From the NCBI GenBank assembly GCA_963699755.1, contig CAVOVB010000002.1, forward strand, positions 64,001 through 128,000: a stretch of DNA of 64,000 bases, given 5' to 3'. The notes below the pieces were generated by a model. It searched no databases, was not told the origin of the DNA, and worked only from the letters and a program-made list of their open reading frames with translations. How positions within the stretch are numbered: the stretch's first letter is position 1; every line of letters begins with the position of its first letter. Shown here in pieces: positions 4,886 through 34,617 of this stretch. Origin of the DNA: an uncultured delta proteobacterium. Lineage in GTDB: Bacteria > Myxococcota_A > Polyangia > Polyangiales > Houyiibacteriaceae. The position numbers were made by a program, and so were the translations under genes.

Positions 4886-4888
4886 CGA

Positions 4889-5984: not shown

Positions 5985-5996
5985 CTGTTCCCCAGG

Positions 5997-6809: not shown

Positions 6810-7081
6810 CGAACACCTCTACACATACTGATTGAAAAGCATGGGCCTGGGGAGCCCAGCATGAGACATGGAACGTATGCTAACAAACGGGAAAATCAGA
6901 AATGAGCCTTCGCGTAGCATCGTCGCGCGAGTGCTCGCAAGCGCTAGGTTCAAGGTTACGCAGGTCATAGGCAGGCGCGGTTCAAGAGAGTGACGTGCCT
7001 TACGAATCACTTCCTCACTTCCCTTCTCGCGATTGGGGAGAGTATACCCCCATAGCTTGCCGCTCTTGGGGCAACTGACAG

Positions 7082-8086: not shown

Positions 8087-8128
8087 CGGCGCTCGTCGCT
8101 TCGCCCATTCGGGCAAGACTCTTTGCAG

Positions 8129-10203: not shown

Positions 10204-10257
10204 GGCTTCCTCTGCGACTCCCGAATGGGGGCCTGAATCGATGTCAAACGCCCGACA

Positions 10258-10617
10258 CTAAGCCTCGACGCGAGCGCCTGGTGTCACGGAATGCTCAGCC
10301 ACCACGGTATCGGAGTCGTCCACGCAGGACACGAGCTTGGTGAAGCCCACCCGTTCGAGCAGCTCATAGACGATGGTAGGCACGTCGACGAGTCGCAGGT
10401 CCGTGCCGCGGATTCGTAGATGTGAGTAGAGTCGCACGAGCATGGCCAGTCCCGCCTGATCGATCCGGCGAACCCGCTCGAGGGACAACTCCACACACTC
10501 GACGCCCACGAGTTTCGAGAGCGGGAGTCGCTCGGCCAACCTCAAAGCGTCGTGGCCCAAGAGATCACCATCAAGCTCGATCCGCAGTCGAACAATGGAT
10601 TCACCTCGCGTCTTCAT
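10258..10617 (-). CDS. STAS domain protein (anti-sigma antagonist / MlaB-like)
   Basis: IELDGDL, VELSLERVRRIDQAGLAMLV, LRLVDVP..VYELLERVGF; ATGA overlap with the upstream stop. Confidence 0.85.
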   Translation of the reverse strand: MKTRGESIVRLRIELDGDLLGHDALRLAERLPLSKLVGVECVELSLERVRRIDQAGLAMLVRLYSHLRIRGTDLRLVDVPTIVYELLERVGFTKLVSCVDDSDTVVAEHSVTPGARVEA

Positions 10618-13265: not shown

Positions 13266-13816
13266 GACGACCTACGAAGCTGCCGAGTGATGACTCCGGG
13301 AGGCAATTGGGGCGGCCATGTCCTGAGGCCGGCTTTGATGCGGCGCAGAGTCTCGGCCGGAGACGGACATTCGAGCTCATTCCAGACCCCCCCAAGCATT
13401 GGCAAGCCAAGAACGCGGAGCTGGTCCGCGCAAGCCGCCACCTGTGCCCGGGTCGTGGTCATGCCCCGGGCTATGAGGAGCGCTCCATCGAAATTGGCGC
13501 GGACTGAGGGAGTCAGTGCGGCAGCCCCTTCCCCTTCCAGCAACGCCAGACCGTCGACCCAGACATAGCCGTGCGCGGGCTCTGCCGTCGGCTCAAGCTC
13601 TGCTTTCGACAGCGGCGCCGTGAAGCTCTGCACCATAGAGGTCTCGTTCGTCACCGCGCTCGCGTGCCGTTGAATGCAGCGTGCAAAATGGGTCTTTCCA
13701 TCCCCAGAGTGGGCGGACACCAGGAGAATGCGGTGTGCGTTCGCCGACTGTGCAGCGCCAAACACGCGCGCCACGAGGCTGTGCTCCTCGCGCAGCAATT
13801 TAGCAGAGCTGGTCAC
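13262..13816 (-). CDS. CpsD/CapB-like P-loop protein, degenerate BY-kinase
   Basis: ILLVSAHSGDGKT Walker A, DGALLIAR.MTTR, LGGVWN. Start placed at GTG 13816 (AGGGAAG RBS, downstream of a sigma54 promoter) rather than 13984. Confidence 0.68.
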   Translation of the reverse strand: MTSSAKLLREEHSLVARVFGAAQSANAHRILLVSAHSGDGKTHFARCIQRHASAVTNETSMVQSFTAPLSKAELEPTAEPAHGYVWVDGLALLEGEGAAALTPSVRANFDGALLIARGMTTTRAQVAACADQLRVLGLPMLGGVWNELECPSPAETLRRIKAGLRTWPPQLPPGVITRQLRRSS

Positions 13817-13847
13817 ATCGACTTCCCTAGGCAAGACCAACGTATAA

Positions 13848-13864
13848 CGCAAGATTGGGGCCGA
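13848..13864 (-). promoter_or_regulatory. sigma54 promoter for the cpsD-wzz-wzy operon
   Basis: Minus strand TCGGCCCCAATCTTGCG: GG-N10-GC with TTGC. Confidence 0.6.
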
Positions 13865-13917
13865 GTGTCGATCGGCCCCGCAAAGGGGGACAGTCGCTCC
13901 GCATGGACACATGGTCC

Positions 13918-13963
13918 GTTTCATTCCGAAACAAGGGTGGGCGTCTCCGTGCCGGTTCGGAAC
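13918..13963. promoter_or_regulatory. Pair of palindromic operator/UAS sites, 31 bp apart
   Basis: GTTTC-ATTCC-GAAAC (13918) and GTGCC-GGTTC-GGAAC (13949), between divergent sigma54 promoters. Confidence 0.62.
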
Positions 13964-13983
13964 AGGCGCCTCAACGAGCCCCA

Positions 13984-13999
13984 TGGCTCGATCCTTGCT
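13984..13999 (+). promoter_or_regulatory. sigma54 promoter for the GT4-GT4 operon
   Basis: TGGCTCGATCCTTGCT, near consensus TGGCACG-N4-TTGCW. Confidence 0.75.
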
Positions 14000-14039
14000 T
14001 CATTCGCTTCAGACCCCCAGCCTATCGCCGGAGTGTTGC

Positions 14040-15188
14040 TTGAAAGAGTACCCGACGCCGCGCCGTCGTCTACGCGTGGCCCAACTCATGCAGTATTTCG
14101 CCGTTGGCGGCCTCGAGCGAATGGTCGAACGCCTCAGCGTCGCCTCGAATGCTCGGGGCATCGAGAGTCTGGTCATCGCGTACCTTGGGGATGGGCCGAT
14201 TCGAACAGCGCTCGAGCAGCAAGGTATTCGGACGCTCCTGCTCGACAATGGACCAGGTTTTGATCCGAAGCTCGTATGGCGCCTTCGTTCTGTACTCCTT
14301 CGGGAGCAGATCGATGTGCTGCACACGCATCATTTGGGCCCCTTCGTATACGGCGCGCCTGCGGCTGTTCTGGCCGGGTGCCGGCAGGTCCACACCGAGC
14401 ACTCCCACGAGCTCTACGACACGACCCGGAGGCAATTTCTGGGTGCCATGATGTCACCGCTCGCCGAAGTGGTCGCCGTGACACCGGAAATCTCCGAGTA
14501 CCGAAAGCGCTTTCCGGGCCGATGCCTTGTGATCCCCAACGGAGTGCCCATACCTCAGGATTCGCTCGCGATGCGCGAGGCAGGGCGCGCTCTGATAGGC
14601 GCGAATCAAGACAACTTCGTGGTGGGCTGCGCCGCACGACTTTCTGCCGAGAAGAACCATGCGGGCCTCCTCGAAGCATTCGCACAGCTCGTTCGGGACG
14701 AGCCCCGTTCACTTCTCGCCTGCGCCGGCGATGGGCCTCTCGGCGACACACTGCGCGCCCAGGCGGAAGCCGCTGGTCTGAGTCCACGCGTTCGATGGTT
14801 GGGCACGGTGCAAGACATGGCGCCGTTCTACGCGGCGCTCGACGCGTGCGTCCTCAACAGCGATCGAGAGGGTTTGCCCCTCAGCCTGCTCGAAGCGATG
14901 GCGTTTGGGATTCCAGTAGTCGCAACCGACGTGGGGGGCGTCGGAGAGCTCCTCGCCGGGGAGGCCGGATTGCTCGTTCCCCCGCGTGCGCCCGAGACCT
15001 TGGCTGGCGCCCTGGTGTCCCTGGTCGAGCAACCCGAGTTCGCGAAGAAGCTCGGCGAACATGGCAAGGCCCGTATTCATGAGAGCTACGGCATCGACAC
15101 CATGGTCGACCGTTACGTCGCGCTCTATCGTGACGCCGCAAAAAGACCGCTGCTCTGGTCTAACATCGGTTCTGCACCGTGCGCATAA
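14040..15188 (+). CDS. Glycosyltransferase family 4
   Basis: VGGLERMV, DVLHTHH, ARLSAEKNH, GDGPL, REGLPLSLLEAMAFGIPVVATDVGG. Start moved to TTG 14040 (GGAG RBS at 14030). Confidence 0.9.
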   Translation: MKEYPTPRRRLRVAQLMQYFAVGGLERMVERLSVASNARGIESLVIAYLGDGPIRTALEQQGIRTLLLDNGPGFDPKLVWRLRSVLLREQIDVLHTHHLGPFVYGAPAAVLAGCRQVHTEHSHELYDTTRRQFLGAMMSPLAEVVAVTPEISEYRKRFPGRCLVIPNGVPIPQDSLAMREAGRALIGANQDNFVVGCAARLSAEKNHAGLLEAFAQLVRDEPRSLLACAGDGPLGDTLRAQAEAAGLSPRVRWLGTVQDMAPFYAALDACVLNSDREGLPLSLLEAMAFGIPVVATDVGGVGELLAGEAGLLVPPRAPETLAGALVSLVEQPEFAKKLGEHGKARIHESYGIDTMVDRYVALYRDAAKRPLLWSNIGSAPCA

Positions 15189-16267
15189 GCCACATCATCG
15201 CGCCCGGACTCATGGCTGGCGCCGAGAATGTCGTTTTGCAGGGCTGCGCGGCTCTGGTCGCTCGCGGGCACGCGCTGTCTGTGCTGGTGATGGTGGACGA
15301 TCGCTGTCCCTCGTATGGGGAGCGCTTCATCGAGGCGGCCCAGGAAAGGAACGTCCCGGTCCGCGCGCTACGTGTCCGAGGCCGCCTCGATTTAGTCACG
15401 ATCGTGAAGCTTCGCGGCGCGCTCGAGGCGCACGGCACCGAGGTCATGCATGCGCATGGGTACAAGGCGCTCGTCTATGGCTTGCTGGCAAAGACCAGAC
15501 ACATGGCCCTCGTGGTCACCCACCATGGTGAAACGGGACATGATCGATTGGCGCGATTCTATGAGAGTCTCGCGCGAACGCTGTATCGAATGGTCGACCG
15601 CGTGTTCTCCGTTTCGAACGCTACGACCGAGTCACTCGTTGCGGCAGGCGTGCCGCGGGCAAAGCTCACAACGGTGCCCAACCCCGTTTCGCTTTCTGCG
15701 CCGACCTCCGGCACCGAGCGGAAGCGGTCGGAAGGCGCGATGCTTTTCGTGGGCCGGCTCAGCGAAGAAAAGGGTCTCGACGTACTCCTGCGCGCACTTG
15801 CGTCGCCTCGCGCGCCCAAGCAGCTCACGCTCGATGTTGCGGGCGACGGGCCGTGCGCCGGTCAGTGGAAGGCGCTGTCGACTAGCCTGGGGCTCGATGG
15901 CCGAGTTCGCTGGCTGGGCGTGCGTGTTGATATCCCCGAGTTGCTCGCCGAAACCCAAGTTCTGGTCCTTCCCTCGCGCCGCGAGGGGCTCCCCCTGGCG
16001 GTGTTGGAGGCTGCCTCGTGCGAGGTTCCGGTGCTTGCAAGTCGAGTTGGCGGCGTGCCCGAGGCTGTGTGGGAAGGCGAAACCGCTCTACTCGTTACGC
16101 CAGGCGACGTGGACGCCTGGTCGAGAGCGCTCGAAACCTTGCCGATGCAGACCGAGAAGCTCCGTCATGGCGCAAGGCGTCGCGGTGCCGAAGTCCGCGC
16201 CCGCCACGCACCCGAGCGTTGGGCTGAGCTAACGACGCAACATTACGGTGAGGTTGCAAGGCGATGA
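15179..16267 (+). CDS. Glycosyltransferase family 4
   Basis: AGAENVV, MHAHGYK, FVGRLSEEKGLDVL, REGLPLAVLEA, SRVGGVPE. Confidence 0.9.
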   Translation: MRISHIIAPGLMAGAENVVLQGCAALVARGHALSVLVMVDDRCPSYGERFIEAAQERNVPVRALRVRGRLDLVTIVKLRGALEAHGTEVMHAHGYKALVYGLLAKTRHMALVVTHHGETGHDRLARFYESLARTLYRMVDRVFSVSNATTESLVAAGVPRAKLTTVPNPVSLSAPTSGTERKRSEGAMLFVGRLSEEKGLDVLLRALASPRAPKQLTLDVAGDGPCAGQWKALSTSLGLDGRVRWLGVRVDIPELLAETQVLVLPSRREGLPLAVLEAASCEVPVLASRVGGVPEAVWEGETALLVTPGDVDAWSRALETLPMQTEKLRHGARRRGAEVRARHAPERWAELTTQHYGEVARR

Positions 16268-16319
16268 TCGGCGTAAGACTTCGGTCGAGAGTCGCTCGTC
16301 GCGTCACGCTCACCGACGT

Positions 16320-16365
16320 GTTTCACTTCGGAAGTCGGCGGACGAGAAGTGTTCTAGAAAGGCGC
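16320..16365. promoter_or_regulatory. Pair of palindromic operator/UAS sites, 31 bp apart
   Basis: GTTTC-ACTTC-GGAAG (16320) and GTTCT-AGAAA-GGCGC (16351), upstream of the promoter at 16427. Confidence 0.5.
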
Positions 16366-16426
16366 ATCGAATGGGGCGCCGAAGACACGCGTGCTTGCAG
16401 CGCCGAGGATCTCGGCATCGAGACGT

Positions 16427-16442
16427 TGGCGCGCAGGTTGCA
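16427..16442 (+). promoter_or_regulatory. sigma54 promoter for the GT2-priming transferase gene
   Basis: TGGCGCGCAGGTTGCA: GG-N10-GC with TTGCA. Confidence 0.75.
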
Positions 16443-16490
16443 TGCGCGGCGAGCAGCGCGATTGAATCGAACGCGAGATTAGGTATCGGC

Positions 16491-18308
16491 ATGCCGACGT
16501 GGATGGATATTCTCCTTATTGCTTTCTTATTCTCAGCGCTCCTCGCGCCCTACATCTTCTACCCACTTCTGGTCCGGTACGTGATTCCGCCGAAGACACG
16601 AAGTGACGCTCGGACCGCCCAGGCCTTGCCCCCGGTGAGTGTGCTGATCCCGGCACACAATGAGGCCGCTCGACTAGGCCAGAAGCTACAAAACACGCTG
16701 GCGCTCTCCTACCCGCGCAACCGCATGGAGGTGCTGGTCGCATCAGACGGCTCCGGTGACCAGACCGCCGAGGTCGCGCGCGCGTACGAAAGCTCGGGAG
16801 TGCGCGTGTTGGAGCTACGTGAGCGAGGCGGCAAGCTCGCGGCACTGAAGCATTTGCTCGAGCAGGCGCGAGGCGAGATCGTTTTGTTCACCGACGTCGG
16901 CGCCGACTTGCCACAGAACACGGTCTCCGAGCTCGTCGACGAGCTTGTAGACCCCGACGTGGTCGTGGCCATGCCCCGCTACGTGTCCGTCGGACAGGAT
17001 GGGACTGAAAGCGCCGCCACCGACGGGGTATATTGGAGTCGCGAGACGCGCTTGAAGGAGCTCGAATCGAAGCGCGACATGCTGCTTGGTGCGCACGGCG
17101 CATGCTACATCATGCGCCGGGAATCGATTGTCGAGGTCCCATCCGACACAATTCACGACGATCTGGTTTGGCCCTTGCTTGCCCACGCAGCTGGTGGACG
17201 CATCGTCTATCGTTCCGACCTCGTGGTCTCAGACCTGGCTCCCACTCGCCTTTCCACCATTTTCGAGCGAACGGCGCGCATGGCGCATGGCAATCTTCAG
17301 GTGCTCTGGCGCTACCGTCGGCTGCTGAGCCCGCGCCACGCGCGAATCGCGGTGAGCCTCATCGGCCACAAACTTCTGAAGTCTCTGGGTCCGGTTTGGA
17401 TTTTGGCGCTTGCGTTCTGGGTCAATTTCCGCGCCTTGACCGAATCGGTGTTGGTCCCACTTGCGATCGCCGGTGACCTCTTGCTTCTCGTGCTCGTCGC
17501 ATCTGCGCTCTGGCGCGGCGCAGGCCTTCCACTGCCCCGAAGCCTCGGACTGGGTGTGCATGCGCTGGTGGCACAATCAGGCTGCGCGCTGGGGATCCTT
17601 CGTTTTCCCTTCGGAGCCAACGGAACGCGTTGGCGTCGTCCACCCGAAAACGACGTCCTGGAGTTGCATCGCCCAGCCCTTCCGCCCCCCTCGGTACGAA
17701 TCGCGAAGCGCACCCTGGACGTCGTCGGAAGCTCCGTCGGTCTCTTGCTCGCACTGCCCTTGATTCCGCTCATCGCCCTGGCGATTCGTGTGAGCTCGCC
17801 AGGCCCCATCCTGTACCGACAGGAGCGGGTCGCGAAAGACTATATGGGACGTCCGTACGGCTTTGCGATCTGGAAGTTCCGAACGATGCGAGTCGACGCG
17901 GAGGCCGACGGCGAGGCGGTCTGGGCACAGGAGAGCGATCCGCGCGTGACCGCGGTGGGCGCGTTCCTTCGAAAGCTCCGGCTCGACGAGATACCTCAGC
18001 TCGCCCAGGTGCTCCGGGGCGATATGACCTTGATCGGCCCTCGCCCGGAGCGGCCCTCGATTACCGACACGCTGTCGCTTCAGCTGCCCGGTTATGATGA
18101 TCGACATCCGCCGTGCAAGCCTGGAATCACCGGCTGGGCCCAGGTCCACACCGGCTACGACACCTCGGTCGAGAGCGTGCGCGAAAAATTACTCTACGAC
18201 TTCACGTACAACGCCCACCTCTACGGGCTCCGCAGCTACCTAGCGATGGAGCTGCGCGTCATCCTGCTCACGGTTGCGGTGATCATCAACCGAAGGGGCG
18301 CGCACTGA
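16491..18308 (+). CDS. Fusion of GT2 glycosyltransferase and polyprenol-phosphate phosphoglycosyl (priming) transferase
   Basis: N half: VSVLIPAHNE, ASDGSGD, GGKLAAL, FTD, HDD. C half: KRTLD, PILYRQERV, KFRTM, RLDEIPQL, GDMTLIGPRPE, KPGITGWAQV. Start ATG 16491 is consistent with the promoter. Confidence 0.88.
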   Translation: MPTWMDILLIAFLFSALLAPYIFYPLLVRYVIPPKTRSDARTAQALPPVSVLIPAHNEAARLGQKLQNTLALSYPRNRMEVLVASDGSGDQTAEVARAYESSGVRVLELRERGGKLAALKHLLEQARGEIVLFTDVGADLPQNTVSELVDELVDPDVVVAMPRYVSVGQDGTESAATDGVYWSRETRLKELESKRDMLLGAHGACYIMRRESIVEVPSDTIHDDLVWPLLAHAAGGRIVYRSDLVVSDLAPTRLSTIFERTARMAHGNLQVLWRYRRLLSPRHARIAVSLIGHKLLKSLGPVWILALAFWVNFRALTESVLVPLAIAGDLLLLVLVASALWRGAGLPLPRSLGLGVHALVAQSGCALGILRFPFGANGTRWRRPPENDVLELHRPALPPPSVRIAKRTLDVVGSSVGLLLALPLIPLIALAIRVSSPGPILYRQERVAKDYMGRPYGFAIWKFRTMRVDAEADGEAVWAQESDPRVTAVGAFLRKLRLDEIPQLAQVLRGDMTLIGPRPERPSITDTLSLQLPGYDDRHPPCKPGITGWAQVHTGYDTSVESVREKLLYDFTYNAHLYGLRSYLAMELRVILLTVAVIINRRGAH

Positions 18309-18312
18309 CCGT

Positions 18313-19791
18313 TCAGCGAAGCCCGTACTTCTCGAGCTTTCGATAGAGCGTCGTCCGACCGATCCCTAGCGCTTTGGCCGCTTCGGTCAGGCGGCCATTC
18401 TTGTCACGGAGCGCCCGTTTCACGGCCCAGCGCTCTACGGCTTCCAAGGACAGTGGTAGCTCCTCGAGGGATCTTGGCGTGGGTCGTGCCCGTAACTCTT
18501 CCTCCGCGCGCATACTTGGGGCTTCCAGGCCGTTGACGACCGTGTCCCCGTCACCTGGGGCCGAAATGTTCGACTCGGGCAATCTCGATGACCGCGCGTA
18601 GTGATCCCGAACCCGAACCGGCAGGTCTTGAAGGTCGATTTCGTTACCGGTGGCGAGCACGGCAGCGCACTGCAAGATGTTCTCGAGCTCCCGGACGTTT
18701 CCCGGGAAAGGGTAGCGCTCCAGGGCACACATCGCTCGCGCGCTCAAGCGCAAAGGCTGCGCGCCAAGGCTGTTGCAAAGGTCTCCGAGGAGCCTCGGCA
18801 CCAGCAGGGAGAGGTCACCATCGCGCATCCGCAGTGCCGGGAGCTCGATCTCGAAGACGACGATCCGGAAGTAGAGATCTTCGCGAAAACGGTTGGTCTC
18901 AACCATGTCGCGCAGGTTGCGATGTGTCGCGGTGATCAGACGAAAGTCGCTCTCGACCGTGCGAATCCCGCCCAGACGGTCGAAACTACGCTCCTGCAGC
19001 ACCCGCAAGAGTTTGGCTTGCACGGCAAGGGACAGCTCGGCGACCTCGTCGAGAAAAAGCGTGCCACCGTCCGCGCGCTCGAAGCAGCCGGCCCTCGCCT
19101 TATGTGCGCCGGTAAAGGAGCCCCGCTCGTGTCCAAAGAGCTCCGAGTCCTGCAACGACTCGGGGATCGCAGCGCAATTGATCGCAACGAAGGGTCCGCC
19201 CGCGCGTCGACTGTTCTCGTGGATAGCGCGGGCGATGAGCTCCTTGCCGGTTCCGCTATCTCCGCGAATCAAGACGCTGATGTCGCGGCCGGCGATGCGA
19301 TCAACTTGACGAAACACCTCACGCATCCGTGGAGACCGGCCAATCACGCCCGCGTAAGAAACCTCCTCAGCGGGGTCATCGATTCGCGCCGAAGCGCGTT
19401 CGTCTGACGATCGCAGGGCGCGATGGATGGAGGACAACAATCTGCCGCGGTCGACCGGCTTGGTCAGGTAGTCGGAGGCCCCAGCTCGCATGGCGTCTAC
19501 GATCGACTCTGCCGAGGCCTCGGCGGTGAGCACCAGCACTGGAACGCTCGGGTGTTGTCGGAGGGACGCATCGAGCGCCTCCCAAGCGCCGATTCCTGGT
19601 AGGCTGAGATCCAGGCAGACTAAATCGGGCAAGGTGGTGTCGAGGCTGTCCAGGAAGCTCTCCGCATCCCAGCATTGGGCTGTGCGCAGGCCCGCGTCGT
19701 TCAGCCATCCTGTGACGAGCGTGCGCTGATCAGCATCGTGCTCGGCGAAGACGACCAATGGGCCACCTCGAAATGACTCCATGGTGGGCAC
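18313..19791 (-). CDS. sigma54-dependent response regulator (NtrC family; REC-AAA+-Fis HTH)
   Basis: LVCLDLSLP, YLTKP, GDSGTGKE, GSFTGA, LFLDEV, FREDLYFR, PGNVRELEN, AAKALGIGRTTLYRKL. Confidence 0.95.
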   Translation of the reverse strand: MPTMESFRGGPLVVFAEHDADQRTLVTGWLNDAGLRTAQCWDAESFLDSLDTTLPDLVCLDLSLPGIGAWEALDASLRQHPSVPVLVLTAEASAESIVDAMRAGASDYLTKPVDRGRLLSSIHRALRSSDERASARIDDPAEEVSYAGVIGRSPRMREVFRQVDRIAGRDISVLIRGDSGTGKELIARAIHENSRRAGGPFVAINCAAIPESLQDSELFGHERGSFTGAHKARAGCFERADGGTLFLDEVAELSLAVQAKLLRVLQERSFDRLGGIRTVESDFRLITATHRNLRDMVETNRFREDLYFRIVVFEIELPALRMRDGDLSLLVPRLLGDLCNSLGAQPLRLSARAMCALERYPFPGNVRELENILQCAAVLATGNEIDLQDLPVRVRDHYARSSRLPESNISAPGDGDTVVNGLEAPSMRAEEELRARPTPRSLEELPLSLEAVERWAVKRALRDKNGRLTEAAKALGIGRTTLYRKLEKYGLR

Positions 19792-19856
19792 TCCTCGTGG
19801 TTCTGCCTCTTCGAACGTGACGAAAAAGCGGGGGGACGAACACTGTCCGATCAGAC

Positions 19857-19902
19857 GTCCCGAATTGCAACGGCGAACGGCGGAGAAGTTCCGTTCCGGG
19901 AC
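19857..19902. promoter_or_regulatory. Pair of palindromic operator sites 31 bp apart upstream of the activator gene (possible autoregulation)
   Basis: GTCCC-GAATT-GCAAC (19857) and GTTCC-GTTCC-GGGAC (19888). Confidence 0.55.
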
Positions 19903-19961
19903 TCTTCTGCAGAAATGGGCAGGCCCCTTGCACCTTCAGGGCGAATTAATGCGCTATGTTT

Positions 19962-21779
19962 TCACCAGACGGCGCCGCTGGCGTGGAGAGCTCGCGGATA
20001 GCTCGCGATCACCTCGCTCGCGCGAGCGGCGTGATAGGCGATCAATTGAAGCGGCACGGCGAGCACGAGCGGGGACCAAATGGGGTCGATTCGGCTCGCT
20101 TCGATGCACTGCAGGCCATCTCGCTTTGCGACGACTGCGGTGCGCGAGTCACCCAGCAAAATAGGTTCCCCCCCTCGCGCGATGACCTCATGCACGTCGG
20201 ACAAGGTATGATCGAAGGTCTCATCGTGCGGCGCAACGACGACCACCGGCGTGCCTGGCTCGGTCAACGCGCTCGGACGGTGTTTGAGCTCCCCGCCCGC
20301 AAGACCTTCAGCTGGCACATCGGCAAGCGTCTCGACGGTGAGCGCACCTGCTTGGGCGAGCGGATAGTTCTTGCCCCGCCCCAAGTATAGGCCACGGTTC
20401 TTCTCGGCTATCCGACGACCGACCGCGACACACTGATCTTCCTGCTCGAGCGCGCTCTTGATGGCCTGCGGCACGCCGAAAATCGAAGCGGTGATTACGT
20501 CGCTTTTCGCCACCCCATCGCGTCGCTGTCGAATGACGATTGATGCCGCTGCAAGTGCGCAGAGCGTAGCCGTGAAGGCGTTGGTGGATGGGATTCCGAC
20601 CTCATGGCCTGATCTGCAGTCGAGCACCGCGTCGGCCTCTCGGACCAGTGCGCTCGACGTCACGTTGACCAGGGCGACCGTCGGAACGTTTCGCTGTTGC
20701 AAGTACCTGAGCGCTTCGAGTGTGTCCGCGTCTTCTTCCACCTGGGAAACCAGAAGCGCCATGGTCCCCTCCATAAAGACTGCATCGCGGGTCTTGAGCT
20801 CCGAGCTCAGCTCGAGCTCGACCGGGATGCCGGCGATCTGTTCCAGCCAAGCCCGGCCAACATGCGCCGCATGGTGCGAAGCGCCGTTCCCGACCGCGAG
20901 GATTCGGTCCGCTCGCCATAGCGGCCCGCACCAGCAATCCAGCTCGCCGGAATTCATATCGCGCTCGAGCTCGAGCAAGGTGCGGCCTAGGATTACGGGT
21001 AGGTCTTCGATCTCTTCGCGGACGAAGTTGGTGACGACCGTCCCGCTCTGCCGCGTCTCGGCTGAGCTCACGATTCGAGTCCAGCGAGGGACGATCTGCT
21101 CGAGATGCGAGCCGAAGATGCGGACCTGACCCGGGCAGAGCTCGGCAATCTGTCCGTCGTCGAGGGACACGAATTCGCTCGCGACCCGGCCCAGAACGAT
21201 GGGGTCGGAGGCCAGCCAGGAGGCGCCACCCGCCCGCGCCGCGGCGAGTGGATTGCCGCGCCGCGCCGCGTATAGGCAATCGTCGTACTGCGTGCAGATC
21301 ATGCCAAGCGCAAAGGACCCTTGCAGCTTGGGAAGCACAGTCCGCAATGCCGTAATTGGGTGAGCGCGATTGGCGAGCTCTCTGTCCAGCAGCCACACGA
21401 TTACTTCGCTGTCGGTGTCGCTTCGGAACTGGACGCCCTCATGCTCCAGCGCGGCCCGAAGCTCTGCATGGTTTTCGACGACCCCGTTGTGAACGATGGC
21501 GACTCTCGAGCTGGCATGTGGATGGGCGTTGTGTCGAGAAGAGTCGCCATGTGTAGCCGAGCGCAAGTGGCCGAGAACGGTCGTCGAACTGATCGGCTCA
21601 TCTGAAAGCAGCGTCTCCAAGAACGACAGAGGTCCCGTTGCCCTTCGCCTCTGAATCTGGCGGTCGGTCAAGACCCCCAAACCGGCCGAATCACAGCCCC
21701 AGTGCTCCAAATCGGCCAAGCCGTGCATCACACTGGGCACCACGTTGTCATGTGCTGTCGCACAGAAAATCCCACCCAT
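19962..21779 (-). CDS. glmS: GlmS-like protein (GATase + two SIS domains), catalytically degenerate
   Basis: Full-length GlmS architecture (DSAG, GHLRSATHG, NAHPH, VHNG, SDTDSEV, ELKH, PLQLIAY) but starts MGGIF instead of MCGI and lacks the C-terminal NLAKSVTVE. Confidence 0.85.
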   Translation of the reverse strand: MGGIFCATAHDNVVPSVMHGLADLEHWGCDSAGLGVLTDRQIQRRRATGPLSFLETLLSDEPISSTTVLGHLRSATHGDSSRHNAHPHASSRVAIVHNGVVENHAELRAALEHEGVQFRSDTDSEVIVWLLDRELANRAHPITALRTVLPKLQGSFALGMICTQYDDCLYAARRGNPLAAARAGGASWLASDPIVLGRVASEFVSLDDGQIAELCPGQVRIFGSHLEQIVPRWTRIVSSAETRQSGTVVTNFVREEIEDLPVILGRTLLELERDMNSGELDCWCGPLWRADRILAVGNGASHHAAHVGRAWLEQIAGIPVELELSSELKTRDAVFMEGTMALLVSQVEEDADTLEALRYLQQRNVPTVALVNVTSSALVREADAVLDCRSGHEVGIPSTNAFTATLCALAAASIVIRQRRDGVAKSDVITASIFGVPQAIKSALEQEDQCVAVGRRIAEKNRGLYLGRGKNYPLAQAGALTVETLADVPAEGLAGGELKHRPSALTEPGTPVVVVAPHDETFDHTLSDVHEVIARGGEPILLGDSRTAVVAKRDGLQCIEASRIDPIWSPLVLAVPLQLIAYHAARASEVIASYPRALHASGAVW

Positions 21780-21833
21780 TTGGATCCTTGAAGTTGGAGA
21801 GTCCGAACCAATCCCGCTTGAACTCTCGAGACC

Positions 21834-21850
21834 TGCGAAAACCGGGCCAG
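21834..21850 (-). promoter_or_regulatory. sigma54 promoter upstream of the glmS-like gene
   Basis: Minus strand CTGGCCCGGTTTTCGCA: TGGC and GG-N10-GC. Confidence 0.58.
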
Positions 21851-21870
21851 TCGTCCTGGGGACCCTTTGC

Positions 21871-21957
21871 GTTTCACAAGCGAACGCCGTGATGCGCTAG
21901 TGTACCGAATAGGGGCGGGGCCCATGCCGTCCGGTAGAAGCCGTTTCAATTCGGACG
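21871..21957. promoter_or_regulatory. Palindromic operator/UAS sites upstream of the glmS-like gene
   Basis: GTTTC-ACAAG-CGAAC (21871), GTACC-GAATA-GGGGC (21902, +31 bp), GTTTC-AATTC-GGACG (21943). Confidence 0.5.
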
Positions 21958-21966
21958 TCGGCGGGA

Positions 21967-23811
21967 CTACCCACCCACGGGTGCCGGCGCCCTCGCCTCC
22001 CCTTCAGCCAGGAGTTGGAACTGCGGATGGGTGGCGCGCAGTTCCTCGAAGGTTCCCTCTCCCGTGACGACGCCATTTTCGAGAAAGTAGATCGTGTCAC
22101 AGTTCTTCACCGAGGTCAGCCGGTGCGCGATGATGATGACCGTCTTGTTCGGTGCGAGTGTGTCCAATGCTTCCATGACTAGCTTTTCAGTGACGTTGTC
22201 CAATGCACTGGTGGCCTCGTCCAAGATGAGGACGTCGGGATCATGGTAGAGCGCTCGCGCGATTCCTACGCGCTGACGCTGGCCGCCGGAGAGACGAACG
22301 CCGCGCTCACCTGCACGACTCTCGTACTTCCGCGGGAATTCATTGGCTACGAATGCATGGAGGTTGGCGAGCTCCGCAACGGCTTCGACCCTGTCTTGGT
22401 CGATCTGGTCCTTTGGGACTCCAAATGCGATGTTTCCAGCAATGCTCGTGTCCGCCAGGAAAATGCTTTGCGGAACGTACCCAATCGAAGCCTGCCAAGC
22501 ACGAACTTGCCTTTCCTCTATTTCCGCTCCGTCCACCAAGAGCGAGCCGTTCGTCGGCCGGAGCAGTCCTAGTATGATGTCGACTGTGGTCGTCTTGCCT
22601 GAGCCGGTGGAGCCGACGAATCCGACCTTCGAGCCGGCCACGATGCGCAGGCTCATGCGCTTGAGCGTCGGGGCGTCGCTACCAGGATACCGATAGACCA
22701 GATCGCAGAACTCGAGCTGTTTGGTCAGCCTGACCCGCGATTCGACTTCTCGGCCGGCATCCGCGCTCTTCGGGCTGCTTCTTGGTTCTCTGCTGAGACG
22801 TAGCGGGCCCTCCAATGACGTGAGCGCTGCCGTGGAGAACTCCATTTCCGCCAAATGCGCATAGATCCTCTGAAGGGCTGGCATCATTTTGTACCCGGCG
22901 AAGGCATAGAGCCCAATCACCGGCAGGCCTGCGGCAAAGCTCCCCTCGGTTGCGAGCACATAGAGAATCACCAGCAGCATGCCGCCGAAGATGATGGCCT
23001 GCATGGCGATGGACGGCACTTGTCCGAGCACTTTCGACCGAATCATCGCATCGCACATGCGACGTGACACCGAGTCGAATCGCTCGGCAAAGAATGCTTC
23101 GGCATGCAGGACCTTGACTTCTTTGATCCCCGCAAAGGCTTCGGACAAGACGTGATAGCGGGCCTGGTTTGACTCGAGCCAGGCCTCACCGGCTTGGAGG
23201 ATCCGAGACCGAAGGAAACGATAGGTGAAAACGTATGCCCCGCCGAGGACGAGGACAGTCGTAGCAGCCAATACGGGATCGACGATGATCAGGAAGGCGA
23301 ACACGAACAAGGCAACGAGTGCGTTGCTCGCGATCATGAGCAGCGGCAAGACGGCGTGGAAGATCGCTTGATTGACCTCGTTGATGGTGGTCGCAGAGAG
23401 CTCCGAAGTGTGCCTCGCGAGGAACCATTCATAGGGCTGCCGGAGATAGGTCTCTACGATCCGGCAACTCCAAGAGTGCATCAGATTTCCCGCGTACCGA
23501 ACCTGCGCCCAAGCGACGAGCGCCTGCAGGCACAGAGCCGAGAGAACCAGAAAGAAGACCAATGCGCCGGTCAGGATCAGCAAATCGTCTGACGACGTAA
23601 TGCCGGTCCACGAGGATAGTGTCACAAGCGCAGAGTTCGACTGAATGAGATCGGGCGAGGAAAGAATTGCGAGGAACGGCATCATGGACGCAACCCCCGT
23701 GGCCTCGAGAAGTGCGAGGATGCCCATCAGGGACAAGACCTTGAGCGCTCCACGCCGTTCAGGGGGCGAAAGCAAGTCGTGAAGCTGGCGGAGAGAGTGA
23801 ATCAAGGACAC
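21967..23811 (-). CDS. ABC exporter, fused TMD-NBD (PglK/HetA-like lipid-linked oligosaccharide flippase)
   Basis: Six-TM N half, GSTGSGKTT, GYVPQ, LSGGQRQR, ILDEATSALD, IAHRL. Confidence 0.88.
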   Translation of the reverse strand: MSLIHSLRQLHDLLSPPERRGALKVLSLMGILALLEATGVASMMPFLAILSSPDLIQSNSALVTLSSWTGITSSDDLLILTGALVFFLVLSALCLQALVAWAQVRYAGNLMHSWSCRIVETYLRQPYEWFLARHTSELSATTINEVNQAIFHAVLPLLMIASNALVALFVFAFLIIVDPVLAATTVLVLGGAYVFTYRFLRSRILQAGEAWLESNQARYHVLSEAFAGIKEVKVLHAEAFFAERFDSVSRRMCDAMIRSKVLGQVPSIAMQAIIFGGMLLVILYVLATEGSFAAGLPVIGLYAFAGYKMMPALQRIYAHLAEMEFSTAALTSLEGPLRLSREPRSSPKSADAGREVESRVRLTKQLEFCDLVYRYPGSDAPTLKRMSLRIVAGSKVGFVGSTGSGKTTTVDIILGLLRPTNGSLLVDGAEIEERQVRAWQASIGYVPQSIFLADTSIAGNIAFGVPKDQIDQDRVEAVAELANLHAFVANEFPRKYESRAGERGVRLSGGQRQRVGIARALYHDPDVLILDEATSALDNVTEKLVMEALDTLAPNKTVIIIAHRLTSVKNCDTIYFLENGVVTGEGTFEELRATHPQFQLLAEGEARAPAPVGG

Positions 23812-23925
23812 GCAGTGTAGCCAACTGGAGCGCCCCCCCCAAGGTCTCGACCCGCCAGACAGCTCCCTCGGAAAGAAACCAGCGCGTCTCTGGCCTCCGA
23901 CGCTCGTAAACTGTACTTCACAGCT

Positions 23926-25554
23926 TCATTCCACCGTCAGCTGCGAGACCGGGTACCAGCCGTCCGCTCGACGCCCTGCGATGGCAAGCAACAGCGGCGG
24001 CAGTGCCTTGGTATCAGGCGCCGTGCCGTCGCGATCCAGGAGCGCGAGATCGATCTGATAGGTGCCCTTCGGTAGGTCCGAGGGAATGGCGATGGTATCG
24101 CGTACTTTCCAGCTACCAGGCAACCAGGTGCGAGTGTCCTGTGTGCTGCCGAGGATGATTTCCTTGGTCGGCCCGCGCAGACGGTAGGTCAGGACCCTCG
24201 GTAGATAGTGGGGTGCAACGCCAACATTGCGCCAGTCCGTCTTGAAGGTGGTGCGGCTGCCCACCGGGACGGTGCCCTGATGGTTGAAACGATCGACGAC
24301 AAACCGGTAGCCGTTCCGTTTGAGTAACTCGTCGATGGGGGCGACGTAGATCTCAGGCACCGGCTTAGATTTGGCGTTGAGCACGGAGGCGTGCTGCCTC
24401 AGGGCCCATTGAAACGACTTGTGGACCTCGCCGTTTGGCTTAAGGGCGGTCCAGCCGAGCTCGTGCCATCGCTCGAGCGTGCCGCAGATTTCGAGCTGGA
24501 CGGGCGCCTTCTTCCAGACATCGGTGAAGCCGGCGTCGGCAGCGGTGGCCGCGGCGATCATCGACGGATAGAGCTTGCCTTGGTGACTCCAGGAACCGCC
24601 CCACATTCCCCAGTCGCCCCAGCAGTCGGCGCGCCAGCCAGCGCCGCCCTGCGTGGCATGGAGCATGAGCCCCACGTTCTCTCGATCGAGCCCAAGCATG
24701 ACGACAGGAGTGTTGGAAAAGGCACGCAGGTGATGATCGATGAGCCGGGTTAGCGCCGTCACGATCTGCTGACGCTCCTTGTGGTTACCGGGCTTGTAAA
24801 CGTCGACGAGGCTCTCGGCGTTTGACAAACAAGCAGTGTTCCACTCTCCCCAGCAGCCAACCGTGCCGATATCGACATGGTCGACTGCGGGGTGCCCGTC
24901 GTAGCGGTCTCCAAGAGCGCTGATTAAACGGGCATGCTCGCGCTGAAACGTGGGGTCCCGATAGTCCGGCCAAAAGACGCGGCCGCCGTCGCCCTGACGC
25001 CACTGACCGGCGACGTCGTATGGAGCGCTGGTCAGCCAATCTGGAATTCCGGACTGCCCCTCGGCAACCGTCATCACGCGGAAGGACAGGGTCATCCCCA
25101 TCACGTTGGCGGATTGGATGGCCCGGTCGATCATCTCGAAGTCGATCTGTCCCCGCTTCGGCTCGAGATCTCGCCAGTGCCAGCGGAAATAGGCCGTGCC
25201 GGATTTGGGGTAGTTCTCGGGCCACTGTTTCTTCACGCGCGCTGCGCATTCCTTTGCGGAATAGGTGATCGGCGGCAGGTTGCACCACCAGCCGAAGTGG
25301 AAGCTGGCGAAGCCCATGCCCGGGTTGGTTAGGACGTCGTCGATGCGCGTGGGCTTGACGGTGATGGTGCCTGGCTCGGGAACGTCTGCTCTTGCCGGGG
25401 CGGGCTCCTCTGAGATGCCCTCGATCGCCTCCCGCGCTTGATCGCCATCGGTGTACGCCCGACAAGCATTGTAGGCGACCCCGGAAGCCACGGTGCCGAC
25501 GACGAGGAAGGCGAAAACGAAACGCGAAAAACCCCTGGAAGCTGCTCGAATCAA
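23926..25554 (-). CDS. Exported DUF4832-domain protein (GH-A-like glycoside hydrolase)
   Basis: N-terminal TM/signal, LTNPGMGF, YFRWHWRDLEP, DIGTVGCWGEWN, GYRFV, WRNVGVAP, WLPG. Confidence 0.7.
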   Translation of the reverse strand: MIRAASRGFSRFVFAFLVVGTVASGVAYNACRAYTDGDQAREAIEGISEEPAPARADVPEPGTITVKPTRIDDVLTNPGMGFASFHFGWWCNLPPITYSAKECAARVKKQWPENYPKSGTAYFRWHWRDLEPKRGQIDFEMIDRAIQSANVMGMTLSFRVMTVAEGQSGIPDWLTSAPYDVAGQWRQGDGGRVFWPDYRDPTFQREHARLISALGDRYDGHPAVDHVDIGTVGCWGEWNTACLSNAESLVDVYKPGNHKERQQIVTALTRLIDHHLRAFSNTPVVMLGLDRENVGLMLHATQGGAGWRADCWGDWGMWGGSWSHQGKLYPSMIAAATAADAGFTDVWKKAPVQLEICGTLERWHELGWTALKPNGEVHKSFQWALRQHASVLNAKSKPVPEIYVAPIDELLKRNGYRFVVDRFNHQGTVPVGSRTTFKTDWRNVGVAPHYLPRVLTYRLRGPTKEIILGSTQDTRTWLPGSWKVRDTIAIPSDLPKGTYQIDLALLDRDGTAPDTKALPPLLLAIAGRRADGWYPVSQLTVE

Positions 25555-25969
25555 TTCATCGACCTCGTACCGAGCCTAGCATCGTGAACATTGTGGCGCA
25601 GAACGAGCCGCCGCATGCCCGGAGCAGGCTCTTCGTTCGAATCGGCACTGGCTTCTAAGCCGAGCTCGGCCTTGATGGGAGCTCGGAGCGCTGGGCCGGA
25701 GAATCAGATCAAGCAGCTGTGGTAGCGAACGTCCCTCGAGATCCGCCGCGAAATTCCATAGTTTGGACTCTCAGCGCCTCGAGTCTGGACTCCGACGAGA
25801 TGGGCCCTCCGCCGCGGCGGCTCGTTCGTTCGGCAAATCGTGCTGCTCGGCCCTCTTGCGACGACTTTCTCGATTTGAGACAGGCCGTTCGGGTCTACTC
25901 TCCGACAGCGAAGGACATCGGGACCCTTGCCGACCATCCGAGAAACTTCTAGATCCAACAAGGACCCCC

Positions 25970-27871
25970 ATGAGCCATCTCATCCCTCTCCCGGAGCACA
26001 CGGTCGAAATCGTTAGCGACGCCGGCGAAGGTGCGCAAAAAGCAGCCATTGCCTTCGCCCAGCTCTGCGCCAAAGCGGGCAACGGCCTTTGGACCGTGGA
26101 GATCATCCCCTCGGAGATCCGTCCCCCGCCTCATACGATCGGAAGCGCGAGCGGCAATCGCATTCGCCTGGCCGAGCGTAGCAAGGTCACCAATGCCGGT
26201 AACCGAGCGAACGTGGTCCTTGCCTTCAACGAAATGGCCTTGCTCTCGCGGCTCGAAGCAGGAAGTCTCGCCGACGATGTTCTCGTGCTGATCGACGATC
26301 ACTGGGCGACTCATGATGACGAGCGGTACCGGATCTCCTACCGCGAGGTGCTCGACAAAGTCCGTTCGCGTGGCGCGACCATCCGCGAGGTACCGCTGGA
26401 AAGGGAAACCATGCGCCACGCCGAAGATGCACAACAGGGCAAGAACATGTTCGCGGTGGGCCTCCTGTGCGCCCTCTACAACAAGGACATGGACGTGCTC
26501 GACGATGTGATTCGCGGCATCTTCAAGGGCAAAGCCCGCGAGGTGATCGAGCTAGCCGTAAGGCTCGCAGACGCCGGCTACCAATACGGAGTCAAACACT
26601 TCGAACAACGCTTCGAAATCCAGGCTGTGCCGACAGACATCCCGAAAGTAGCCATGAACGGGAACACCGCGCTCGCGCTGGGCGCCGTCTCGGCCGGATT
26701 TGAGATCTGCTCCATGTATCCGATCACCCCAGCGACCTCTGCTTCACATGAATTGTCGGGGATTTTCGAAGATTTCGGCGGCTTCGTCCATCAGGCCGAG
26801 GACGAGATCGCCGCGATTGGGGTGGCGCTTGGAGCATCCTACGCCGGAAAGACCGCGCTGACCATCACCTCAGGGCCGGGCATGGCCTTGAAGACCGAGT
26901 TTCAGGGCTTGGCCGTGATGACCGAGACACCGCTCGTCATCGTCGATGTTCAGCGGGGCGGACCCAGCACCGGCTTACCCACGAAGATCGAGCAGTCGGA
27001 TCTGCTTCATGCGCTCTACGGCGCGCCAGGGGACGCACCCAAAGTGGTGATCGCGCCGAGCACGATCGAAGAGTGTTATTATATTCTTTCGCTCGCCCGG
27101 AAGATCGCCGAGGAATTCCGCATGCTCGTCATCGTCCTTTCAGATGCGAATCTCGCGACCGGTCAGCAGCTTTTCGATCGTCCCGATGTCTCCCAAACAC
27201 CGCGACGGCCCCCGCTCGACCTGAGCCCGGTGCCGCTCGGAACCCTTCCGTACGATTGGGATCCCACGACCGGCCTTTCGCAGCGCCTGATCCCTGGGCA
27301 ACCAGGGGGAATGGGCGTGACGACCTCGCTCAACCACGACCGGAACGGAAAGGCCTGCTATGACGCCGAGCGCAACCAACGCGGTCACAGCATGCGGAGC
27401 CGAAAGCTAGCGGCACTACAACAAAGCCTGAACGCGCCGAGCGTGCATGGGCCGCCCGAAGGCGACCTCCTCCTCGTGGGTTGGGGCAGCACGCGGGGAG
27501 CGATCGAGGAAGCCGTCGACATAGCGCGCGGCGAAGGCCTCGCGGTTTCCTCCGTCCACCTTCAGTTCCTGAGTCCCCTGCCCCCCGGGCTCCGCGAGAT
27601 CTTCGCAGGTTTTCGCCAGATCATCACCGTCGAGCTGAACTACAGCGACGATTGGGAGGACCCTTTGATTACAAAGGAAAACCGTCGATACGGCCAGTTG
27701 GCATGGATCCTCCGCGCCGCCACCCTGCTCGACATCGACTGCTACGCCAAGGTCCCCGGTCGGCCCTACATGCCGGTGGAAATCATGGACGAAATCAAAC
27801 GTATCCTGGGCAATCAATCGGGAATCGAAAGCCCGGCTGAGACCTTCCCAGCCATTGCGGGAGCCAATTAA
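25970..27871 (+). CDS. korA: 2-oxoacid:ferredoxin oxidoreductase alpha subunit (gamma-alpha fusion)
   Basis: MYPITPAT, QAEDEIAA, TSGPG, VQRGGPSTGLPTK, GWGST; start ATG 25970 with AGGA RBS. Confidence 0.92.
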   Translation: MSHLIPLPEHTVEIVSDAGEGAQKAAIAFAQLCAKAGNGLWTVEIIPSEIRPPPHTIGSASGNRIRLAERSKVTNAGNRANVVLAFNEMALLSRLEAGSLADDVLVLIDDHWATHDDERYRISYREVLDKVRSRGATIREVPLERETMRHAEDAQQGKNMFAVGLLCALYNKDMDVLDDVIRGIFKGKAREVIELAVRLADAGYQYGVKHFEQRFEIQAVPTDIPKVAMNGNTALALGAVSAGFEICSMYPITPATSASHELSGIFEDFGGFVHQAEDEIAAIGVALGASYAGKTALTITSGPGMALKTEFQGLAVMTETPLVIVDVQRGGPSTGLPTKIEQSDLLHALYGAPGDAPKVVIAPSTIEECYYILSLARKIAEEFRMLVIVLSDANLATGQQLFDRPDVSQTPRRPPLDLSPVPLGTLPYDWDPTTGLSQRLIPGQPGGMGVTTSLNHDRNGKACYDAERNQRGHSMRSRKLAALQQSLNAPSVHGPPEGDLLLVGWGSTRGAIEEAVDIARGEGLAVSSVHLQFLSPLPPGLREIFAGFRQIITVELNYSDDWEDPLITKENRRYGQLAWILRAATLLDIDCYAKVPGRPYMPVEIMDEIKRILGNQSGIESPAETFPAIAGAN

Positions 27872-27873
27872 CG

Positions 27874-28830
27874 ATGTCTATGCTCGCTGAACTATGCGTC
27901 ATCGAGAGCGGAGCCGCCGATCCGCACACCCTCGACGAGTACGAATCAGAGACGCCGCGCTGGTGCAAGGGATGCGGAGATCATGGAGTGCTCGCGGCGC
28001 TTCAGCGCGTGCTCCGCAAGAACAACCTCGATCCAGAGGACGTGGTCTCCGTTTCCGGCATCGGATGTTCGAGCCGCCTGCCCCACTACCTCAACACCTA
28101 CGGTTTTCACGGCATCCACGGCCGTGCTCTCCCGATCTCCACGGGCGTGCGCCTCGCCCGTCCCGAGCTGCCGGTCGTCGTGATCATGGGCGATGGGGAC
28201 TGCTTCAGCATCGGCGGCAACCATTGGCTGCACGCGATCCGCTACAACATCAACGCAGTCGTGCTGGTGCTCGACAACGAGGTTTACGCGCTCACCAAGA
28301 TGCAGGTATCGCCCACCACGCCGGACGGGTGGAAAACCAACACCACCCCGCATGGCACCTACCTTCAGCCCATGAACCCTCTCAGTGTGGTGATGGGGAT
28401 GACCAATGTCTCATTCCTCGCCCAGACCGCGACCTGGCTGCCCGCGCACCTCGACGAGACGATCGAAAAGGCCTGGGAGCACCATGGCCTTTCGTTCGTC
28501 CGGATCCTGCAGCGTTGCCCGGTGTTCATGCCCAAAGCCTTCGGCGATGGCGGGTTGAACTTCCCGGTCGTGTTTCTCGAGCACGAAGACGGCATCCCGG
28601 TCCACCCCTTGCTACTCAAGCGCGGCGCCACTCGAGCGCACAATCATCGCGACATCAACGAAGCTCAGCGCGTTGCGGTGTCTGTCGACCCCGCTCCCAT
28701 GGGCCTGCTGTACCGCAATCCCGATGTTCCAACCTACGAGGAGATTCGATGGAACCGCCAGGAACGGCCAGATCATCGGACCTTCGTCGAGCGGTTGGAT
28801 GCCCTGATGGACCGTTATACCGTTAGCTGA
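27874..28830 (+). CDS. korB: 2-oxoacid:ferredoxin oxidoreductase beta subunit (TPP-binding)
   Basis: WCKGCGD, SGIGCSS, IHGRA, GDGD...GGNH, LDNEVYALTK.Q.SPT. Confidence 0.93.
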   Translation: MSMLAELCVIESGAADPHTLDEYESETPRWCKGCGDHGVLAALQRVLRKNNLDPEDVVSVSGIGCSSRLPHYLNTYGFHGIHGRALPISTGVRLARPELPVVVIMGDGDCFSIGGNHWLHAIRYNINAVVLVLDNEVYALTKMQVSPTTPDGWKTNTTPHGTYLQPMNPLSVVMGMTNVSFLAQTATWLPAHLDETIEKAWEHHGLSFVRILQRCPVFMPKAFGDGGLNFPVVFLEHEDGIPVHPLLLKRGATRAHNHRDINEAQRVAVSVDPAPMGLLYRNPDVPTYEEIRWNRQERPDHRTFVERLDALMDRYTVS

Positions 28831-28835
28831 TCTCC

Positions 28836-30329: not shown

Positions 30330-30425
30330 GGAAGCCAAGCCTTTCGAACGCGTCTTGCCCCGCGCTGCCCATCTGCTTAGATGGGGCAAACGCACCCTAC
30401 GCGTTCATACCTGCCGAGGTCACCC

Positions 30426-31769: not shown

Positions 31770-31772
31770 AGC

Positions 31773-34159: not shown

Positions 34160-34162
34160 TCC

Positions 34163-34609: not shown

Positions 34610-34617
34610 GGTGACGC

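Follow-up and report, generated by a model that had tools for sequence, protein, structure and literature searches.

The closest described relative of the protein examined here, which we call GlmS*, is the GlmS/GFAT family (TIGR01135; E. coli structures 1jxa and 4amv). GlmS* is encoded on the minus strand at 19962-21779 of a 64,000-nucleotide stretch of DNA from an uncultured delta proteobacterium (GenBank assembly GCA_963699755.1, contig CAVOVB010000002.1, positions 64,001 to 128,000), referred to below as the window. It shares the domain order, length, fold and family score of GlmS/GFAT, but lacks three of the four residues described as catalytic in GlmS (Cys1, Glu488 and Lys603, His504 being the fourth; PMC9272926), has a changed channel gate and phosphate loop, and carries a C-terminal tail that is disordered in its model. 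Pseudoenzymes of amidotransferase pathways are already known. PDX1.2 of the plant pyridoxal phosphate (PLP) synthase (PMC6829848) is, like GlmS*, a clade-restricted non-catalytic paralog kept beside active copies in a glutamine-using pathway, but it has a different fold, and its hetero-assembly has been demonstrated, whereas for GlmS* it would be hypothetical. The herpesviral vGATs (PMC7605207) are likewise enzyme-dead amidotransferase homologs reused in regulation; they are viral, derive from PFAS (class I) and act on a host enzyme, whereas GlmS* is a bacterial derivative of class II, the N-terminal nucleophile (Ntn) type. No described GlmS pseudoenzyme was found in the open-access literature, subscription journals lying largely outside the search, and the GlmS* family is a real, genus-restricted and apparently undescribed family of GlmS pseudoenzymes.

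The genetic setting of glmS* can also be compared with described systems. In Vibrio fischeri, the syp polysaccharide cluster (PMC12369376) is likewise controlled by a sigma54 response regulator that receives its input from hybrid kinases. HNOB-linked kinases stand next to related glmS copies (L067, L045, L047), and STAS, ligase, chain-length and transferase genes are present. The likeness is one of organization and Pfam/NCBIfam domain content, and the available excerpts on syp mention no glmS pseudoenzyme. In the RapZ-QseE/QseF circuit of E. coli (PMC7073468), contact between proteins links amino-sugar metabolism to a two-component system that includes a sigma54 activator; there the sensor is RapZ and the output a small RNA, whereas in the window a dead GlmS is the candidate, with polysaccharide genes as the output. 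Atypical pseudo-receivers are defined by a non-acidic second D or by the absence of at least one of five conserved residues, and how they switch is stated to remain unknown (PMC12632262). The activator in the window is likewise an orphan with a non-acidic second D; it differs from those regulators in that intact and degenerate receivers coexist within one genus, matching kinase presence, and in that a candidate partner adjoins.

A first-pass annotation, made from the letters of the window, had described an intact 605-residue GlmS-like frame with a ribosome-binding site and a sigma54 promoter, listed losses at Cys1, Arg26, Trp74, the phosphate loop, Lys485, Glu488 and Lys603, noted that the glutamine ligands were kept, and proposed a repurposed glutamine/nitrogen sensor. 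The frame, ribosome-binding site and promoter are all present, and every listed substitution was confirmed in alignments. The open reading frame (ORF) begins with ATG, has GGT as codon 2 and encodes 605 residues, with a glutaminase domain (approximately 1-236) and two SIS subdomains (approximately 263-588). The protein can be aligned with E. coli GlmS over its whole length (phmmer 334 bits, query 2-600), and its TIGR01135 score of 457 exceeds the cut-off of 418, so annotation pipelines would call the gene glmS. Changes relative to E. coli GlmS are C1G, R26W, Y28C and W74S on the glutaminase side, S349V, G350E and T352D in the phosphate loop, and K485T, K487E, E488T and K603A beyond it, together with K403N, E481A and G505R, which the earlier list did not contain. 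The isomerase residues Glu488/His504/Lys603 read Thr/His/Ala, with one of the three kept; the retained His504 had gone unmentioned. R73, T76, H77, H86, N98, G99 and D123 are all retained in the window protein, as had been noted. GlmS* therefore presents the architecture and family score of an active GlmS, but not its Cys1 or its set of isomerase residues.

AlphaFold predicted a full GlmS fold (mean pLDDT 84.9), with low confidence at 238-250, 391-397 and the C-terminal tail 590-605, where pLDDT was below 50. The best structural matches of the model were GlmS and GFAT (Foldseek E 5e-48; TM-score 0.77 to 1jxa). A canonical glmS, whose presence elsewhere in the genome the first-pass annotation had suggested confirming, lies on the same contig (G000:C2:763116-764918) and its product is 35% identical to GlmS*. 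Its position on that contig ruled out a binning artefact, considered because genome contamination was 9%. In one RNA run, 14% of the sampled words were present. The contigs from this run over 9000-26000 were short and of low depth, and included 19961-20367 and 21677-21891; the latter spans the glmS* promoter itself, so the contigs may be of DNA origin and nothing is concluded from them on expression.

To place GlmS* among its relatives, we examined the best 120 of 1821 protein matches. Among these, 39 relatives at 44-79% identity stood above the plateau of ordinary GlmS at 35-40%. Across 88 genomes of the family, 8 of the 54 others in the genus carried the paralog (9 of 55 with the present one), and none of the 33 from other genera did; related records are titled Myxococcota/Polyangiales. 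An intact canonical glmS is present in all nine genomes carrying the paralog. In a quick protein tree of 70 rows, intact paralogs (P0033; P0021 with L067; P0012 and P0020 with L063) form a basal grade, above which the Cys-less sequences form one clade of 43 rows (SH-aLRT 99). None of the 39 rows of this clade that cover position 1 has Cys there. In the earliest branches (P0008, P0005, P0004) a good part of the phosphate loop is still present, as are some of W74, K485 and K603; later branches have lost the same motifs, with replacements that differ between branches. On this tree, the Cys-less subclade lost its two active sites step by step. When 1.84 billion representatives were searched with a profile, there were 4816 strong matches, and no second degenerate GlmS clade was found among the best 150: of 148 further best matches, one was degenerate, a fragment of the Cys-less clade, and 147 differed at 1 of 16 key sites at most. 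Within the Cys-less clade, one subclade has Ser (AGT) at position 1 with N98/G99 kept (L048-L050, L052, L053, L061, L062 and L066, and also P0007, P0009, P0010 and P0015-P0018). N-terminal Ser is used by other Ntn hydrolases.

Read from DNA, all 18 Cys-less loci (near-duplicates included) are free of stops and frameshifts; 15 are complete at 601-612 residues and three are cut by contig ends, and members down to 38% identity are still approximately 600 residues long. The ratio of nonsynonymous to synonymous substitution rates (dN/dS) was estimated with our own GY94 code, which agreed with IQ-TREE. In seven loci or their genomes, glmS* gave 0.15-0.16, canonical glmS 0.03 and the activator 0.10; a glycosyltransferase fusion gene described below gave 0.085 in five. 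Codon models on 13 sequences, with the near-duplicates L052 and L053 dropped, were fitted with three ratios and branch by branch. The three-ratio model gave 0.164 for Cys-less branches versus 0.061 for intact paralogs (likelihood ratio 29.7, 2 degrees of freedom). All 11 Cys-less tips fell at 0.07-0.27 and each rejected 1, the window tip standing at 0.149; values on long branches are possibly deflated by saturation and those on short ones (0.18-0.27) are not, while short internal branches, including the stem of the Cys-less clade, were uninformative. By region, dN/dS was 0.115 in the glutaminase domain, 0.35 in the linker, 0.17 and 0.18 in the SIS subdomains and 0.76, near neutral, in the C-terminal tail; only the ratios are cited, the region-wise likelihood ratios being inflated by fixed branch lengths.

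The marks of a pseudogene (stops, frameshifts, dN/dS near 1, a decayed promoter) were not found in glmS*, and two marks of a pseudoenzyme were: an enzyme fold without its catalytic residues and purifying selection after their loss. By these measures, constraint on glmS* is relaxed but real, as in a pseudoenzyme and not a pseudogene, and GlmS* is very probably a selected pseudoenzyme of some kind. The first-pass annotation had argued for a repurposed ligand sensor against random decay, and had suggested testing whether Cys-less homologs form a clade that is linked to exopolysaccharide loci and sigma54 activators and has dN/dS below 1. The clade, its linkage and the selection (open frames, dN/dS 0.15-0.16) were all found; the sensor part did not stand in the same way, as discussed below.

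The upstream region of glmS* is conserved as well. A Shine-Dalgarno-like AAGGA lies at 21785-21789 and a sigma54 -24/-12 site at 21834-21849, both on the minus strand. Alone, the sigma54 site is not above chance (one match, 0.21 expected, 18 of 100 shuffles); it recurs, however, at all 21 of 21 homologous loci, near-duplicates counted, 50-80 nucleotides ahead of the start. Three conserved boxes further upstream (21942-21957, 21901-21910 and 21870-21887, minus strand) are candidate enhancer sites for the activator, and their patterns occur in 20 of 21 loci, the exception having only 106 nucleotides of upstream DNA. Sigma54-like sites also precede two genes or gene pairs on the plus strand: two family 4 glycosyltransferases (GT4; 13995-16267, first start uncertain; site at approximately 13984-13999) and the fusion of a family 2 glycosyltransferase (GT2) to a priming sugar transferase (16491-18308; site at approximately 16427-16442). 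The box before the GT4 pair resembles that of glmS*, and the site of this pair is found in G066 and G073 too. Because these sites are shared, glmS* is probably an output of the neighboring activator. Before the activator gene itself, a conserved element of TTGCAA, 17 nucleotides and a hexamer (19842-19870, minus strand; consensus TTGCAA/T-17 nt-xAxxxT) is found in 14 of 14 loci with the activator behind it and is absent in L067, where the activator does not follow. The element may be the activator's own sigma70-like promoter, overlapped by an operator-like box. A plus-strand sigma54-like site near 19918-19933, seen by eye, was dropped since it is not conserved in other spacers.

The activator (REC-AAA+-HTH, 18313-19791, minus strand) lies directly downstream of glmS*. 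Its receiver reads E-H-D-T-K, with His18 at the second acidic position and Asp61, Thr89 and Lys111 kept, and falls within the pseudo-receiver definition of PMC12632262. The first-pass annotation had reported the adjacency and the lack of a kinase partner, and both hold: a tblastn search of the window, for which nine whole or partial kinase sequences of related loci served as queries, detected no kinase, and the one weak match was the activator's own receiver. In related loci the upstream kinase is HisKA-HATPase-REC-Hpt, and its His lies only 18-21 residues from the called start, so it has no input domain. Such a sensor-less hybrid kinase stands upstream in L063 (intact paralog), L065, L058, L059, L055 and, judged by its Hpt end, L064; intact glmS genes with such kinases or HNOB-kinases also occur in L043-L045 and L047 (other genera) and in L067. 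[quoted passage not shown] Two single loci deviate. In L055 (1632-3126) the upstream hybrid kinase is split into two frames, by early kinase loss or assembly error, and in L051 (11993-13468) the phospho-acceptor Asp of the activator is replaced by Glu and the acidic pair is degenerate.

The paralog and the activator are closely linked. The activator is directly downstream in 7 of 7 genomes with a Cys-less copy, and the two gene trees agree on well-supported groups. Among the 55 genomes that represent the genus, 13 have the GT2 fusion, 10 an activator ortholog, 9 the paralog and 4 the kinase. In G073 and G066 the syntenic polysaccharide genes are kept and glmS* and the activator are both absent, the gap in G073 being 33 bp; G033, with its activator at a contig end and no paralog found, is uninformative for co-occurrence. 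Along the protein, no changes were counted at D274, W283-L287, A290, W129, R119, L226, W233 and W568 on a tree of 10.6 substitutions per site, and W283-C284-G285-P286-L287 is a fixed clade-specific motif. The least variable positions belong to fold motifs or are clade-specific. As side observations, C284 and C450 are conserved in intact and dead paralogs and not in canonical GlmS, which together with the HNOB kinases of related loci raises a possible redox link, and 92% of dead members have D528 where the enzymes have an invariant Asn.

We tentatively propose, at a probability of about 40%, that GlmS* is a regulon-encoded pseudoenzyme that regulates the kinase/activator module by protein contact, probably as feedback. 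As part of this proposal, GlmS* would be a dead but folded, full-length regulatory component of a sigma54-controlled surface-polysaccharide locus, kept by selection. It builds on the loss of catalytic residues, the single clade, purifying selection, the conserved promoter and synteny. As the tree suggests, an accessory active glmS would have been placed under the sigma54 promoter of the locus, flanked by a sensor-less hybrid kinase on one side and a sigma54 activator on the other. As the housekeeping glmS took care of synthesis, the accessory copy would have lost Cys1 a single time. Both active sites and the C-terminal tail would then have eroded, while the fold and the W283-C284-G285-P286-L287 motif, D274, W129, R119, W233 and W568 stayed fixed. 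Made as an output of the activator, GlmS* would feed back on the signaling module by protein contact. Inhibitors of sigma54 activators that are encoded within the regulon, such as PspA acting on PspF, offer a model for this feedback. Where the kinase has disappeared and the receiver is no longer suited to phosphorylation, GlmS* may be the control that is left, and ligand binding in the old glutamine pocket may tune the feedback in some lineages.

Several observations weigh against this proposal. The partner of GlmS* and the direction of regulation are wholly inferred. The Cys-less clade comes from a quick tree. The joint absence from G066 and G073, which are probably close kin, would also fit one deletion of adjacent genes. 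G074 (97% complete) has the polysaccharide genes and, elsewhere, an activator with a degenerate receiver, and no glmS paralog, so the activator can exist without GlmS*; G037 (81% complete) has an intact paralog and no activator ortholog. The receiver and kinase counts come from few related lineages, with genomes 88-100% complete. Activator dN/dS in kinase-less versus other lineages is 0.168 versus 0.069 in REC and 0.047 versus 0.026 in AAA+, and relaxed selection thus extends to the AAA+ domain. Loss of Cys1 preceded loss of the kinase (L055, L064, L065), so GlmS* did not arise as a kinase substitute. Most clade-specific residues are common to the intact basal enzymes and may be inherited fold features. 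Finally, a predicted complex of GlmS* 1-590 (35-row alignment) with activator 1-392 (16 rows) scored 0.00 in both runs; controls were not folded, and the prediction was counted neither for nor against binding.

Could GlmS* instead be the glutamine/glutamate sensor of the first-pass annotation, its old glutaminase pocket binding an amino acid and gating the activator or kinase? The pocket residues are glutamine ligands in GlmS, and we counted them after dropping five near-duplicate rows, which left 38 Cys-less rows, 36 of them covering the pocket. R73, T76, H77, G99 and D123, with His or Gln at 86, are kept in 26 of 36; the six backbone anchors of the pocket average 2.3 parsimony changes, as against 9.5 at catalytic glutaminase sites and 13.5 at isomerase catalytic sites, and change less than random glutaminase-domain sites (P 0.03). 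The glutaminase domain is also the more constrained one and superposes well on 1xff (TM-score 0.94, root-mean-square deviation 1.6). By their PDB titles, C1A GlmS (3ooj) and the isolated glutaminase domain (1xff) were crystallized with glutamate, so binding in the GlmS* pocket is possible. All seven residues, however, persist in only 5 of 36 rows (R73 0.78, T76 0.97, H77 0.81, H86 0.53, N98 0.36, G99 1.0, D123 0.92); one subclade of six rows has lost most of the pocket at full length, and three further lineages have lost R73 or H77. Set against other invariant sites, the anchors are not significantly less changed (P 0.20; against the polar ones alone, P 0.07), and the complete pocket of the window protein is unsurprising, because it keeps 41 of 54 invariant glutaminase-domain sites. 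Moreover, intact GlmS binds glutamine after fructose 6-phosphate (PMC9272926), yet the sugar site of GlmS* is degenerate. Nothing in the neighborhood of glmS* points to nitrogen assimilation, the context being polysaccharide synthesis. From these alignments, amino-acid binding in the pocket is not a clade-wide requirement, and we consider a glutamine sensor possible but doubtful. A bolder reading, in which a moonlighting GlmS was once the missing input subunit of the sensor-less kinase/activator pair and, after catalysis was lost and several lineages had dropped the kinase, its dead form became a direct, possibly amino-acid-gated switch of the pseudo-receiver activator, strikes us as quite unlikely.

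The canonical GlmS found in every genome with a paralog, the preservation of the whole two-domain fold and the co-regulation with polysaccharide genes would suit a non-catalytic partner of the housekeeping enzyme, whose mixed oligomers damp or stabilize amino-sugar flux during polysaccharide synthesis. S326, E327, R331, G496 and E497, which we take to lie at the SIS dimer interface, change at most once each. Arg539 acts across the GlmS dimer, yet it changes 8 times and cross-dimer His504 7 times, and the paralogs are only 33-35% identical to their own canonical GlmS. His504 acts across the dimer by analogy (PMC10285752), and PDX1.2 is a precedent for such a partner (PMC6829848). The tight linkage to the activator is left unexplained, and a partner of this kind seems unlikely. 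That GlmS* is a slowly decaying, functionless relict, its frame kept only against misfolding or polarity on the activator gene, would fit the stepwise motif loss with branch-specific replacements, the higher dN/dS relative to intact paralogs, and the patchy presence, with clean absence from two syntenic loci. It is improbable given a dN/dS far below 1 on every tip, the uninterrupted frames and retained length, and the conserved promoter and upstream boxes; since the activator appears to have its own promoter, the polarity argument is also removed. A different enzyme, such as a new hydrolase, isomerase or deaminase for a polysaccharide precursor, is very improbable. The gene does lie among biosynthetic genes, His504 is kept in 68% of members, and the Ser1 subclade keeps N98 and G99, but dN/dS is highest in that subclade (0.18-0.27), neither active site has gained an invariant polar residue, and Glu488 and Lys603, two of the three catalytic isomerase residues (PMC9272926), change 12 and 23 times.

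The rest of the polysaccharide locus surrounds glmS* and the activator. On the minus strand at 10258-13852 are a small protein without a Pfam match, a Wzz-domain protein, an O-antigen ligase/polymerase (Wzy_C) and a STAS protein, and a methyltransferase, three further glycosyltransferases and a flavin oxidoreductase, at 3563-10203 with strand not assigned, make up the remainder of the cluster. Upstream of glmS*, also on the minus strand, lie an ATP-binding cassette exporter most like PglK/HepA but below their cut-offs (21967-23811) and a DUF4832/GH42-like protein that travels with the cluster (23926-25554). By eye, 25970-37764 holds 2-oxoacid:ferredoxin oxidoreductase alpha/beta-like genes followed by V/A-type ATPase-like subunits, and 54927-63999 a biosynthetic cluster with an MMPL-like exporter, ketosynthase-like genes, a flavin-dependent enzyme and an ammonia-lyase-like gene.

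Related genomes show further variants. At the glmS*/activator position of G066 (L191:9133-11475) are two unrelated ORFs, by eye polysaccharide deacetylase-like and acyltransferase-like. In L043-L045 and L047 the second glmS, which is intact, shares its module with PHP and TPR proteins, with a hybrid kinase that either is sensor-less or carries HNOB, and with response regulators, of which one has a PIG-L deacetylase domain. L046 (G067:C3) is a third glmS, intact and long-branched, with GAF and epimerase matches beside it; its neighbors presumably resemble a Pel-type polysaccharide cluster. Behind the intact paralog of L067, an NAD-dependent epimerase domain is fused to a fasciclin domain (11849-12988). 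The sole glmS found in G074 (C1:1103905-1105727) is in two frames, probably through sequencing error.

GlmS* proteins pass the glmS family cut-off and are hence annotated as active enzymes. The clade grades from intact enzymes to proteins dead at both sites, with losses of a single site in between, and is a clean case for the origin of a pseudoenzyme in bacteria. It also offers matched natural pairs of sigma54 activators with intact receivers and pseudo-receivers, each with the candidate partner adjoining, which are testable in E. coli. If the bolder reading given above, which we hold quite unlikely, were true, polysaccharide synthesis in these bacteria would be under a pseudoenzyme-pseudoreceiver pair that works without phosphorylation, with every evolutionary step visible in living genomes.

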